NCBI GenBank assembly: GCA_964016885.1
Contig: OZ024741.1
Location: 337,528,001 to 337,592,000, forward strand
DNA length: 64,000 nt
Source of the DNA: Eledone cirrhosa
Taxonomy: Eukaryota
Direction of reading: 5' to 3'
A program made the translations under genes and the position numbers. Below are positions 2,250 to 59,000 of the stretch, piece by piece (within the stretch, counting starts at the first letter, position 1; the number at the start of each line of letters is the position of its first letter). The notes under the pieces are model-generated. The model saw nothing but the letters and a program-made list of their open reading frames with translations. It did no database searches and had not been told where the DNA came from.

Positions 2250-2375
2250 TAGGAATGAGTAGGACCCCGACGACTGAGCTCAAGCCGTTTTGACGGCTAA
2301 TTCTGGACTAAATTTAGTCCAGAATTAGCCGTCGAAACAGCTTGAGCTCAGCCGTCAGGGTCCTACTCGTTCCTA
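2250..2375. repeat. 126-bp spacerless palindrome between (TA)n tracts, PLE-tail-derived
   Basis: Arms 2250-2312 and 2313-2375 are reverse complements (5 mismatches), centre CTAAA|TTTAG; same tail family flanks the PLE fragment at 33412-33550 and 34274-34342. Confidence 0.9.
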
Positions 2376-2516
2376 TATATATATATATATATACACACAT
2401 ATATATATATATATATATATATATATATATTGTCTTTATTTGTTAATTTTTCATTCGCACCGTTTCCTTTCGCTATATGTCTCTCCACCACTCCCCTACA
2501 CACCTTTTGAACTCTT

Positions 2517-2548
2517 ACCTGAAGAAGAGCTTATGCCCGAAACGTCGT
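2517..2548 (+). ncRNA. Minimal type I hammerhead ribozyme-like motif
   Basis: AC-CTGAAGA-A-GAGC/TTAT/GCCC-GAAA-CG-TC-GT; palindromic stem III (ACGT), GUC site, only 2-bp stem I; AATAAA about 40 nt downstream. Confidence 0.5.
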
Positions 2549-2673
2549 CCTCCACCTACCCCCCACTCTCCTGAGCGTGAATCTAATAAACATTTGTCGT
2601 ACTGCCTCTCTGTTCTGTCCCTGTTCAATTTTTTATTATATATATATATATATATATATATATAGTTTGGACC

Positions 2674-2707
2674 GGGCTGAAGATCTGCAAGGTGAAACAT
2701 TTGTTCT
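2674..2707 (+). ncRNA. Hammerhead-like motif, same family as 54656-54696
   Basis: GGG-CTGAAGA-TCTGCAAGGT-GAAA-CATTTG-TT-CTT; downstream tail 2716-2800 matches the reverse complement of 54550-54637. Confidence 0.5.
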
Positions 2708-3649
2708 TAGTATGGTGAACTAACTGTTGTGATACTACTTCTACTAAACTCGTACCATGGACTGAGTGCTCTACTACTACAGATATAACCTACCAGTGTT
2801 CTACTATTATATATATATATATATATATATATATATACATATATATACAGAAATATATATACAGAATTATATATATACAAATATACACACAAATATATAT
2901 ATACAAATATAAATACACAAAAATATATATATATATATATATATATATATATATATATATATATATATAACAGCACACTTAAGTACGTAATATAATTTTT
3001 AGAACCCTTTTAAATGTTGTCATGTAATCAAGTGGGATGAAAGGATTTCCAGTCGATTAATCTGTTCACTTAATATGCACTACTTTGAACTGATTGCTTT
3101 AACGAGGTATTCAAATAATCTATGATAAATGCACTAGTTAATTAGTGTAAATAAATAAATAAATAAATAAATAAAAATTGATTTGGGACAGGTGTTTTCA
3201 TTTCATATGAAAGAATATTATCTGCATGGCATCTCCCATATTGTATAGTAGATCAAGCTTTCATGTCTGGCTAAATATACTGTCATTCTTCCCTTCACTT
3301 CACTGGTATAACCAATACATATTCATTCATATTTACTAATTTATTAAAATATCAGTGACAGGAAACGATGAATTCGATGATAAGCTGTAAAAGTTGAATA
3401 TTTTTCAAGTAGTCGTTAGAGATGTTAAACCAGAGCATCCACACCTCTCCTTTCTGCCTTTCTCTTCTCATCAAGATGACTCAATTAGAAGTAGTTACAG
3501 AGATGGTCAGCCAGAGCATCTGCTCCTCTCCTCTCCACCTTTCCCATCAAGATGACAATCTAAAAATCCTGATAAATATACATAACATCTTTCAGCGAAA
3601 TCTTTTTTTACGAAGGTAGCATTAATTTGAAGAAAAGATTGATATCTAA

Positions 3650-54655: not shown

Positions 54656-54696
54656 CTGAGCTGAAGATCTGCATAAGGTGAAATAATTGTTCTCAG
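54656..54696 (+). ncRNA. Type I hammerhead-like motif preceded by an inverted copy of its own tail
   Basis: CTGAG-CTGAAGA-TCTGCATAAGGT-GAAA-TAATTG-TT-CTCAG; perfect 5-bp stem I. Confidence 0.65.
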
Positions 54697-55149
54697 CATG
54701 GTGAACTAACTGTTGTGTTACTACTTATATATATATAGTAATAATAATAAATATGAAGACTAAAATCCAAAGAGGTCTCGATTCTTTGCTTAAACTTTAA
54801 TCTGTTATTTTAATAAATATATATATATATATACATATATATAATGTAAAATATAAATATATAAAACTATCAGCTTGTTGACCAATAACCCCTTGATGCA
54901 AGAAGGTGCTAAACCACCCAGCAGAGAGAACCCACATAGATATTGTTACTGGTACAACAATTTTGATATCTTACACAAAAAACTTATAGAATATAGAATA
55001 TAAAATCAGTTAGAACAATTAAATATTACTTACTTTATACTAGTAATATACAGTTCAAATACATGCTCTTCCCCAGTCCCCTCCTCTCTCTCTCCCTATA
55101 TATATATATATCCAGAGGTTATATTTAATTTGTTGGGATTCAACAAGCT

Positions 55150-58100
55150 TAAAAAGAGCAACCAATGATGACCTTGAAAAACTAAATACTGAAGCTTCTT
55201 ATATAATGCAGGAATTAGGCATCGAAAATAGGACTCAACCCTTCATACCTAGGAAACCAAAAATTAATCTGAAGGACCATAAAATAAATTTTAAAATTGA
55301 ATTACCAGTTAGATTGATTGCACTATCTAAATCGGACCTTGGCATACTTAGCAAGAATATTTTAGATAGAATCATACCACAACTTAAGGAAATATCTTAT
55401 TTAAAATGATGGAATGGGACTAATGAAGTTATTGACTGGTTTAAGGACATTAAATATAAACATAACAATAAATTCATTCAATTGGATAATATTAATTATT
55501 ACTCATCCATCACTCCTAATCTACTTAATAAAGCCCTTACATATGCATTTAAATATACAGAAATAACTAGCAATGACATGCACATTATATTAACTGCACG
55601 TAAAACATTAATTAAATTTAGCAACCACCTTTGGACTGGAACAGACAGGGATAACAATTTCGATATCACTATGGGGTCATCGGACTCGGCGCAATTAACG
55701 GATCTTGTTGGGCTTTTTATTAACAATACTTTACATAGGAAAATACCGGAGATGACCGGTGGTTTATATCGTGACGATATGCTATTACTTATTGAAAATA
55801 ATAATAATTGTGAAATAAATAGGAAAAGAAAAGAAATATACAATTTTTTAATAGCGTTAATCTTAAAGTAGAAGTAGAGAATAATTATAAAATAGTTAAT
55901 TTTTTAGATGTAACTTTAAACCTTAACACTGGTTTTTATTGTCCATTTCATAAAATAAACGAGAATTTAAACTATGTTAACTTTAATTCCAATCACCCCA
56001 TATCCGTTAAAAACACTATTGTACATTCTGTGCAGCACGTATTTCTAGAATTTCAGCGAATAAAAATATATTTGAAGATAAGGCACAATATTATAACGAA
56101 GCGTTAGGTAGAGTAGGCTATAGTAATGAAATTAAATACATTGACAATAAGGATGTGCCAATTAACCATAACTATAAATATAATTATAATAGAAAACCTT
56201 GCACTAACTCGAAAACCAAAAGAAAAAAATAGAACTAAAAATATATTATGGTTCGCTCCCCCTTGCTCATTAAGTATTAAAACTCCTATTGCTAAATTAT
56301 TCTTTAAAGCTCTAGATAGGTGCTTTCCTAAGATACACAGGTATTACTCAATCTTTAATAGACATACTATTAAACTCTCATATTCCACCATTTAGCGCAG
56401 AATATTAATAGAATTAATAATAGAAACTTAAAACCTAACCAGAATAGCATTAATACCCCTAGCAAGATCCAATATAATGTTACGGCTCCCAATAATATAA
56501 ATTTAGATAAATGTAATTGTAGAAATAAATCTAACTGTCCTCTAAACAATAATTGTTTAGTTAAAAATATAGTATACAATTGTAATGTCAAAACAAATTA
56601 AAACTCCTTTAACTATGTCGGCTCTACTTCCACAGACTTCAAATATCGTTTTAATAACCATAAATGTTCCTTTACTAATATTGGTAAAAATCTTCAACTT
56701 CTCTATCTAACTTATTATGGGACTTGAAATCCAAGAATATTAACTATTCTTTACTTTGGAAAATTATTTCCAAAGCTCCTTCATACACTGCTTTATCCCA
56801 AAATTGCTTACTTTGCGTTGAAGAAATATTCTTTATACTAAAAAGTAAGAACTCTATTAATTTGAGAAATAATTTATTTAGTTCCTGCAAACATCATTTA
56901 AATATATATATAAAATGTAATATATGATTTATCTCCTTTACATAATGTCTTCTATATCTAGATATGATTAATATATTTAATTTACTTTCTATTATCTCTA
57001 CCTCACATACATATACTATATACTTTTTATTATTACACCTATCGATAGATTATACATTTTTTTTATATGACTGCTTGAAACTCCTTTAAGAAAATTTTTT
57101 CATTGAAAAACTTACGGAAGGTTTTAAGAAAAATCTTTTGAAAATTCCTTTGAAAGATATAGAAAAACCATTATTTTCATACCTTCCAATATTTTTATAT
57201 GTTTATATCTTCAAACGTGTTTAATATATATATCCAAATGTTTATATATATGTGGAAAAACATATGATTTTTATATATAGGTTTTTTTATATATATGTGG
57301 AATAACCCATGGTTTATGCTTTAAATATATTCTTAAGATACATTTTTTTTTATTTTTTAACTTTATAGCAAGTAAATTTATGACTTCGTATAAAATAACA
57401 TATGGTTCATGTTTTAACTATATTCTTAAGATAAAAAAAAATGTTTAACTTTTTAACTTTATAACATTTAATCCTTAGAGCCATCTGAGTTCTTAAACAA
57501 TCACTTCTAACTTCCTTTACACTTTCTTACTGTTTTTATAATATAATTAAGTGGTTATTCCTTTGTAAACTCTCGTCAATTTTTCATAAATTTAGAATTA
57601 TTTGGATGTTTAAACTTTGACTTACAACTTTTAATAAAATAAACTATACTAGATTTGCTCTAATGTAAAATACTATATATTTACTTAAATAATTTATAAT
57701 CCTTAACATACACATTTAAACTAATTATTAATATTAAATTATTAAATTAAATCTTTAATATTAAGGGAAATTTTAATCTTTAATTTTGATTTCTAATTTT
57801 TAATTTTAATCTAATTTTTCAACCTATAAGTATTATAATCAAAACGTAATGAACCCTGCATTATAAATATTATTCTTCCACGTTAATCTCATTTCTTCTT
57901 TCACTTAGATATACTTACGCTGTGTATATTTATCCTTTGAAACTTATTTCTTCATGCACTCTATTTTCACTATCAATATATATAATCGTTCTTTCTTTCC
58001 TCTTCAATCATTCTCCTTTCTTTTTTCCTTTTTCTCTCTCCCTTACATATCATCTTCTTCCAACAGTTTAATTAAATAAACCGTTATCTTTTCAACCTTT

Positions 58101-58345
58101 CGGACACCCATTTGCATACTCACTCATAACTTTGTATCACCCTCAATAAATGTACTATCTCCACTATCCAGGAAGCTCCAACCGTTAAGGTTGTCTTTTT
58201 TTCCGGGTATGTCAATATTTATTTATAAAACAAATCTGTATTTTATCTGATGAAAGCGCACCATAATTTGCCTTAGCTGCCCTTGAAATATGTATAATAA
58301 AATAAATATGGTTTTATAAATATAGTTTCCATTTATTAATATATT
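55150..58345 (+). mobile_element. Naiad-like Penelope element, 5'-truncated and decayed, with long AT-rich 3' UTR
   Basis: NLKDHK, RLIALSKSDLG, FDITMGSSDSAQ, GGLYRDD, VNFLDVTL, ILWFAPP, CNCRNKSNCPL, YVGST, NCLLC, SCKH; stops and frameshifts; HHR at the far 3' end. Confidence 0.88.
58239..58304 (+). ncRNA. Type I hammerhead ribozyme at Naiad-like PLE 3' end
   Basis: TATTTTAT-CTGATGA-AAGCGCA...TGCCCTT-GAAA-TATGTA-TA-ATAAAATA; perfect 8-bp stem I, AUA site, overlapping AATAAA. Confidence 0.8.
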
Positions 58346-58753
58346 GTATATATATATATATATATTGGTAAAAGGAAAAGAAAATGCTGACAAATTGTTC
58401 CCAGTGAAAAATAGTTTAATTAGGAATAAGTAAAAATTAGTAATAGTATTGGTTTGTATTCAGTTTTGGTTTTAAGTTTTACCGGTTGCGCATTTCTAAT
58501 GCTTTTCAAAAATAATTTTGAGATAATTTTATATATATATATATATATGTGTGTGTGTGTGTGTGTGTGTATATATATATATGTGTATATATATGTGTGT
58601 GTATATATATATATATATATATATATATATATATATATATATATATATATATATATATATATATATATATATATATATATATATATATATATATATGTAT
58701 ATATACATATATATACACACATATATATATATATATATATATATATATATATA

Positions 58754-59000
58754 TAAGGAAAAGAATTTTAAAATGCAACTAGAGTCTTTTAAGAATATTT
58801 ATTTACTTTACCGGTTTCAGTTCATATGATTTTCAAAAGTAAAATTGAGATGGAGGGTTTGTGTTTCTGTTGTGATTTGTCTCACGAAACATGCCACAAA
58901 CTCTCAATTTTAATTTTGATAATCATAAGTACTGCGAAACCGGTAAAGTAAATAAGCATTCTTAAAAGACTCCAGTTGCATTTTCAATTTCTTTTCCTTA
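58754..59000. mobile_element. Fold-back element with U3:A8 HHR-like motif on both arms
   Basis: Arms 58754-58850 and 58902-59000; minus 58802-58843 TTTACTT-TTGAAAA...GAAA-CCGG-TA-AAGTAAA; plus core TTGATAA at 58916-58922. Confidence 0.8.

Follow-up and report, generated by a model that had tools for sequence, protein, structure and literature searches.

Palindromes with hammerhead motifs in the Eledone cirrhosa genome as probable integration by-products of Penelope-like elements

Results

Eight palindromes at (TA)n sites

We analyzed a 64,000-nt stretch of the Eledone cirrhosa genome (assembly GCA_964016885.1, contig OZ024741.1, positions 337,528,001 to 337,592,000, forward strand; hereafter the window), which carries eight short palindromes with an anatomy described for Penelope-like elements (PLEs). 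The original prediction had described them as head-to-head inverted duplications with an outward-facing hammerhead ribozyme on each strand. All eight inverted duplications were present where they had been placed, including the partial ones at 2250-2375 and 54545-54725. Every one terminates on a (TA)n run or only a few bases away and carries a tail on a single arm, as had been proposed, whereas the AATAAA said often to follow them is present in the sense 3' flank of just two of the eight. The palindromes and two related features are the following:

2184..2375, minus strand: c2250 palindrome; tailed arm 2184-2313 (sense minus), tail-less arm 2312-2375; inverted duplication 2250-2375.
32474..33087, plus strand: c32474, the pseudo-long terminal repeat (pLTR) end of a PLE with a CX4CxxC linker and GIY-YIG; palindrome 32474-33044.
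35340..35725, no strand assigned: c35348, an old palindrome with a U3-A8 minimal hammerhead, cores at 35581 (plus) and 35490 (minus).
35729..35742, plus strand: (GA)n run, extra units at the family E tail-less junction; the template has 2 units.
35738..36375, plus strand: family E, the 3' end of a 4.88-kb PLE with reverse transcriptase (RT) and GIY-YIG; palindrome 35738-36340.
37953..38469, minus strand: F38 (c38083), with a CxCX5C, Hydra-type endonuclease upstream; palindrome 38083-38469.
53090..54509, plus strand: c53095, the pLTR and 3' untranslated region (UTR) end of a Hydra-type PLE; palindrome 53086-54350.
54545..54725, no strand assigned: c54545, a partial palindrome with arms of only ~29 nt (86%); hammerhead-like motif on the plus strand only, core ~54661.
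58754..59040, plus strand: c58754, an old palindrome (58751-59003); tail 59001-59040 (40 nt).
18168..21897, no strand assigned: a kilobase-scale counterpart of the palindromes, with a PLE RT open reading frame (ORF) at 20094-21926 (plus) and an inverted copy.

The family E copy is the most regular, its two 290-nt arms (35738-36027 and 36051-36340) being 100% complementary around a 23-nt templated spacer; its centre lies ~11 nt downstream of an initiator-like site, its tail spans 36341-36375 (35 nt), and U3-A8 hammerhead cores are present at 36191 (plus) and 35887 (minus). In F38, the tailed arm (37953-38275, sense minus) and the tail-less arm (38277-38469) are separated by a lone G at 38276, an initiator-like A bordering stem I of the hammerhead is the first base of both, and the ~130-nt tail is on the left arm. 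The c2250 palindrome is centered on an initiator-like A and contains only the 3' half of the hammerhead. The tail of c32474 covers 33045-33087 (43 nt), with a partial hammerhead at ~32804-32840 and its mirror copy, and that of c53095 covers ~54346-54509 (~165 nt), with a hammerhead-like motif of U4C core at ~54263. In the larger structure at 18168-21897, the inverted copy includes an endonuclease and a canonical hammerhead (core 18427, minus) and ends at (TA)n, while the right arm is interrupted by a long interspersed nuclear element (LINE) at 21897.

Chimeric fold-back reads could produce such structures during assembly, and among the matches listed, no short-read contig bridged any of the window's palindrome centres with 31 nt on each side. 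However, the arms diverge from each other by up to ~20%, their polarity is fixed, fillers occur at the junctions, and short-read contigs have other copies joined at 38274-38277, all of which make an assembly artefact highly improbable.

At least four palindromes are 3' ends of protein-coding PLEs

An ORF for RT with the GIY-YIG endonuclease at its C terminus was present on the same strand upstream of the pLTR for 35738, 32474, 38083, and 53095. Family E, with 805 exact tail matches genome-wide, gave the clearest picture: a microsatellite-rich 3' UTR lies upstream of the palindromic part, followed by the endonuclease and RT, in a full unit of 4,885 nt. Uninterrupted RT-endonuclease frames of 777 aa were present in L136, L147, and L158, and tandem pLTR-ORF-pLTR units had tail spacings of 4,885 (L126), 4,671 (L147), and 4,851 nt (L151). 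The GIY-YIG domain lies 500-550 nt upstream in 12 of 48 sampled c32474 copies and the endonuclease ~1,150 nt upstream in 7 of 88 sampled c38083 copies. For c53095, RT and endonuclease are directly upstream in L447, and an endonuclease is in L450. These assignments were made by motif reading and by tblastn among the families' own proteins; Pfam returned a weak RVT_1 match for one of the four proteins and no GIY-YIG match.

From their translations, 35738 and 32474 have a CX2-5CxxC linker and a CCHH endonuclease, which is Neptune/Nematis-type by the criteria of PMC8557442 (here and below, papers are cited for the available parts of their text), a class whose two clades these motifs alone do not separate. 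The CxCX5C linker of 38083 is Hydra-type, and 53095 likewise by the similarity of L447 and L450. The proposed linkage of tails to autonomous PLEs thus stood for four families, with a single copy (L077) for c58754. On this sequence evidence, the palindromes are 5'-truncated 3' ends of protein-coding PLEs joined head to head in at least four of the eight cases, and the other four are likely PLE 3' ends as well. Weighing against so general an origin, no ORF link was found for c2250 among the loci examined, for c35348 in eight loci with 6 kb upstream, or for c54545 in 16 loci.

Centres vary from locus to locus

The family E sample comprised 60 position-ordered loci with 9.8 kb upstream and a wider set of 96 loci, 40 of them with only 1.9 kb; the tandem-partner loci L126, L136, L147, and L151 were excluded from shared-allele and inverted-arm/GA counts. 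A centre hot spot seen in a best-hit sample of family E proved to be query-biased, and position-ordered samples were used in its place. Across the 60 loci, arm lengths ranged from 70 to >4,000 nt, and either arm may be the longer. Within the flanks of the 96 loci, we identified 49 inverted arms, 48 of which were tail-less and ended at -33 to -40. One centre found twice in the sample occurs five times genome-wide, with different GA counts and, in one case, a different variant pattern.

The original prediction had offered, as one of two readings, a class of non-autonomous palindromic retrozyme-like elements, that is, mobile units of retrozyme or miniature inverted-repeat transposable element (MITE) type, copied whole by a PLE enzyme. 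The c2250 family comes closest to it: no ORF link was found for it, it has 11,130 arm matches genome-wide, 18 of its 22 position-ordered loci are short palindromes, and the 38-nt centre seen in the window recurs exactly at 190 loci. In family E, L291 and L292 have a common centre and (GA)10. On the other hand, 15 exact-centre c2250 loci fall into at least three subfamilies, with both arms tracking the subfamily and arm-specific differences never recurring, so this exact centre arises repeatedly and not by copying. The 190 loci also stand against 11,130 arm matches, the junctions vary base by base, the ribozyme core is absent from the c2250 palindromes, and L295 has the centre of L291 and L292 with another GA count and variant pattern. 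Fixed ends and a centre inherited from one palindromic master were thus not found, and all eight cases are inverted pairs, not the direct tandem hammerhead arrays of retrozymes. That some of the palindromes are mobile units is very unlikely, and the class as proposed was unsupported; with variable centres, tails on one arm, and four families joined to RT/GIY-YIG ORFs, the palindromes are very probably by-products of PLEs.

Both arms derive from one template or source

Within family E loci, minor alleles were shared between arms at 0.0119 per site versus 0.0026 (max 0.0077) in 500 permutations over 37 loci, a 4.6-fold excess. In addition, the arm lengths of 20 of 23 short pairs differ by no more than 31 nt, versus a mean of 5.9 pairs (max 15) in 20,000 permutations. 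Because of these shared alleles and near-symmetric pairs, we trace the two arms of a palindrome to a single template or source. Each palindrome was likely made in a single integration event. Two routes can be envisaged. In L1 twin priming, two primers act on one RNA and the resulting inversion is joined by microhomology. The palindromes resemble it in having two primers, one RNA, and a microhomology joint under this reading; however, L1 inverts an upstream, nonoverlapping part, whereas here both complementary DNAs (cDNAs) would start near the 3' end, which yields a duplication.

Alternatively, in the fold-back named in the original prediction, one cDNA (or an antisense template, PMC3846280) would fold at a local palindrome and extend to a hairpin that is nicked near the tail, with later central deletions blurring the symmetry; the product would still be a PLE by-product. 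Private variants common to both arms and strong arm symmetry are equally expected from such a single-cDNA fold-back, or from gene conversion between arms, and centres often lie at local palindromes (five family E loci on one 12-bp palindrome and 16 c54545 loci on stem III). However, 8 of the 23 short pairs have their longer arm on the tail-less side, and in L130, L131, L148, L150, and L158 the tail-less arm exceeds the tailed one by 1-3 kb. Twin priming is favored because fold-back needs a later deletion to yield these longer tail-less arms. Moreover, (GA)n at 48 family E tail-less junctions ranged from 0 to 25 units, whereas all 96 parsed tailed arms (of 100) had 2 units. Such an excess, confined to the tail-less junction, resembles initiation, at which repeated realignment is expected, and supports twin priming, as do the two start sites found in vitro (PMC11167929). 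The prediction that the palindromes are PLE integration products was therefore borne out, while fold-back as their mechanism appears doubtful and rather unlikely.

Among the sampled loci, we looked for empty-site homologues that would reveal whether (TA)n arises at insertion and found none for 25 insertions. PLE ends nest in one another's (TA)n across the fetched loci, and at 33356-33431 related PLE tails form a tail-to-tail inverted pair flanking one (TA)n.

Hammerhead motifs of the palindromes

A minimal type I hammerhead descriptor matched 4 of 16 strands, namely both arms of 35348 and 35738 with the U3-A8 core, versus a mean of 0.04 (max 1) in 200 Markov-1 sequence sets, which agrees with the enrichment over controls that had been expected. 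The Rfam scan of the window gave 106 matches at E<=1 with no hammerhead and only sub-threshold microRNA (miRNA) hairpins. The six hammerheads outside the descriptor were judged by eye and from family copies. By eye, the 38083 motif has the core, a 9-bp stem I, and a stem III that is palindromic, but its ~105-nt stem II is mismatched (C.A) at the base. The 53095 motif has the U4C core throughout its family and a C.C mismatch, and that of 32474 has the core and a 6-bp stem II but only 2 bp in stem I and lacks a palindromic stem III. In 58754, the family motif is canonical U3-A8 and both window arms are decayed, while in 2250 the centre is ~60 nt downstream of the core, so that the palindrome lacks the core and retains the 3' half only.

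Overall, a hammerhead is plausible on both arms in two of the eight cases, atypical or decayed in four, confined to one strand in one (54545), and reduced to half a ribozyme in one (2250). The claim of a hammerhead on each strand thus held for 35348 and 35738, and transcription in either direction could plausibly meet a self-cleavage site in only these two of eight. At the family level, a type I motif is present in the pLTR in all eight cases, atypically in four. When a long c2250 copy (L436) was folded freely, stem I formed and hammerhead stems II and III did not (z -0.35).

Further type I motifs are located outside the listed palindromes at 18427 (minus), 17169 (minus), 33225 (plus), and 58247 (plus). 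In the c54545 family, the centres of 16 loci coincide exactly with palindromic stem III of the hammerhead, the RNA-RNA pairing site in a dimeric hammerhead. One locus of the 35348 family (L243, G000:C12:37421043-37421687) is a retrozyme-like array derived from a pLTR, in which four ~151-nt units, all with a U3-A8 hammerhead, stand in direct tandem.

Fixed edges at the arm 5' ends

In c2250, 25 of 30 position-ordered arms start 0 to +22 from the A of TCA+1TTT, and none at -1 to -39. Likewise, 45 of 47 tailed arms in independent incidental copies start at or downstream of the initiator-like A, with none in the 74 nt upstream (the offset of that A was taken as -22, the yardstick copy of this set being mutated there). 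In F38, the start falls between -113 and -118, at TCA+1TTA, for 8 of 30 arms and between -125 and -245 for none, and 713 genome-wide matches have a nontemplate base preceding the initiator-like A, although more than half of the 30 inspected are insertions of a short interspersed nuclear element (SINE) at this site. In family E, the 23 nt following TCA+1TTC on its downstream side contain 10 ends and the 23 nt upstream contain 0 (8 loci versus 0; 13 ends at 434-441, a deletion subfamily, were excluded), and 24 of 30 fetched genome-wide matches (of 33) are true ends at the initiator-like base. By eye, c58754 has a comparable edge at CA+1GAT. These sites appear to match the initiator consensus. 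The edge at which centres cluster would be the predicted transcription start in the 5' pLTR. PLE start sites are reported to sit in the pLTR with an initiator (PMC2377424, PMC8557442, PMC3846280).

A second edge in family E coincides with the site of predicted hammerhead cleavage, with 12 ends in the 20 nt downstream versus 1 upstream over 96 loci (p=0.003), and the centre of L161 lies on the predicted cut. Separately, c2250 centres in L414/L415 and L430 contain a filler of ~17-18 T, as if RT had stuttered on a template 5'-end UUU.

Several observations weigh against reading these edges as ends of RNA. The start site is identified by its motif alone, and a cap-derived extra G is rare (2 of ~10 free family E ends, 3 of ~13 non-SINE F38 ends). 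The edge base also fits, in three families, the 5'-ATT-3' preference of the endonuclease of PAc (Poseidon of Anolis) (PMC11167929). SINEs have inserted preferentially at this base in F38 (hot spot in 14 of 30 loci by script, ~17 by eye), which points to a DNA-level nick. As for the hammerhead cut, the family E edge is weak by locus (8 versus 1, p ~0.04, hand count), four of its loci are at TATA microhomology, only 1 of 47 c2250 arms lies near the cut so that no such edge was seen there, F38 gave no clear edge at the cut, and RNA reads ending at the cut were not found according to the available text of PMC11167929.

The ATT match, the F38 hot spot, and the scarcity of cap-like G would fit twin priming with a DNA cut at the fixed edge: to resolve an intermediate, the endonuclease would recut its own pLTR at TC|ATT, and RT would not have run off a capped RNA end. 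The edge of c58754, C|AGAT, is however initiator-like and not ATT by eye, numerous other ATT sites in the AT-rich pLTRs are not edges, and the ends smear downstream only. We therefore regard a DNA cut as improbable and retain the start of the RNA as the preferred meaning of the edge.

The F38 SINE is tRNA-like, with many insertions of varied length at the base equal to 38277 and a 9-10 nt duplication. It was found in L182, L186, L192, L210, and L296-L324, and probably has hundreds of copies genome-wide.

Discussion

From the anatomy, ORF linkage, end positions, and variant sharing observed here, we infer a twin-priming, run-off model of palindrome formation, in whose full form we place moderate confidence. 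A dimeric enzyme would prime both strands of a (TA)n target, each cleaved by the GIY-YIG endonuclease. One RT would start at an outer RNA site and produce the tail, and the second 33-36 nt inward to produce the tail-less arm, both starts annealing through TATA in the RNA. The inner RT may stutter on CUCU and add (GA)n in a telomerase-like manner. Both RTs would copy the same RNA, or RNAs from one source locus, and the cDNAs would stop where the template ends, often at the 5' pLTR transcription start, sometimes at the hammerhead cut, and sometimes at a random break. The two cDNA 3' ends would then be joined by 1-8 nt of microhomology or a short filler. With the start site just upstream of or inside the hammerhead, run-off would give short, ORF-less palindromes whose two arms both contain the ribozyme or else its 3' half, and they would be dead on arrival and nonreplicating.

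The anatomy is already known for PLEs; what is new is the fixed position of the arm ends. In PMC3846280, inverted repeats in head-to-head order, with palindromes at their junctions, were described as abundant and self-priming was proposed; an inverted copy, a 30-40 bp tail, and (TA)n targeting were described in PMC8557442. The endonuclease-bearing PLEs with inverted pLTRs, namely Penelope of D. virilis, A. vaga Pen2/Pen3, Neptune, Hydra, and Naiad (PMC3846280, PMC8557442, PMC2377424), share with the palindromes a head-to-head 5'-truncated inverted copy, a tail of 30-40 nt at one end, a (TA)n target, a pLTR with an initiator-like motif and a hammerhead, and a palindrome at the junction. Unlike in the available descriptions, ORF-less short pairs dominate some families here (c2250, 18 of 22 loci), two families have tails of 130-165 nt, centres coincide with fixed positions, and the tail-less end gains extra (GA)n.

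The PAc enzyme cuts and extends both strands in vitro from two start sites that delimit the tail (PMC11167929). It resembles the model in these respects, in being a dimer, and in that a template with a shorter 5' part gives a shorter product; the available text of that paper does not derive inverted structures from the mechanism. Schistosoma has dual opposite-strand hammerheads 100-700 bp apart and a U3-A8 variant (PMC4209133). The motifs here are similar in the U3-A8 core, the bulge before stem II, the palindromic stem III, and the opposite-strand pairs, whereas two Hydra-type families are mismatched at the base of stem II, one also with U4C, and stem III is 6 bp long in long c2250 copies. 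Non-LTR retrozymes (bioRxiv 10.64898/2026.07.22.740005) are likewise ORF-less, with a type I hammerhead and a PLE pLTR origin; however, they are direct tandem arrays, and the palindromes consist of inverted arms, show a polarity of the tail, and vary in their centres. We found no title or abstract on PLE twin priming, start-site-centered palindromes, or GA stutter in a search that covered few subscription papers or Repbase reports and so gives weak evidence of novelty.

Elsewhere in the window, a LINE 3' region forms one more old inverted duplication at 25076-25603 and another at 44294-44692 (77% and 64% in self-alignment), neither of them listed in the original prediction, tandem arrays occupy 29044-32147 (~408 nt period), 5207-6917 (~49), and 40755-41987 (~28), and an uninterrupted APE-RT LINE frame of 1,040 aa lies at 25659-28781 (minus).

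The origin of PLE inverted structures and the role of the hammerhead are named as open questions in PMC8557442. Palindromes of this kind risk being misfiled as MITEs, miRNA hairpins, or a new class of ribozyme element. The E. cirrhosa genome offers large young samples (805 exact tails of family E and 11,130 arm matches of c2250), the uninterrupted family E ORFs are suited to the existing in vitro system, and the model yields single-base predictions for the RNA start, the RNA cut, and the start of each RT. Tentatively, and as a joint reading that we hold to be possible, the short palindromes would form a genome-wide fossil record of the RNA template under symmetric twin priming. In this record, thousands of strong-stop-like cDNA pairs would mark the capped start site, and a subset would mark in vivo cleavage by the hammerhead, which has yet to be demonstrated in a PLE. 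Stutter at initiation would seed (GA)n and perhaps (TA)n microsatellites, along with tens of thousands of potential double-stranded RNA hairpins. The palindromes thus likely record how PLEs integrate.

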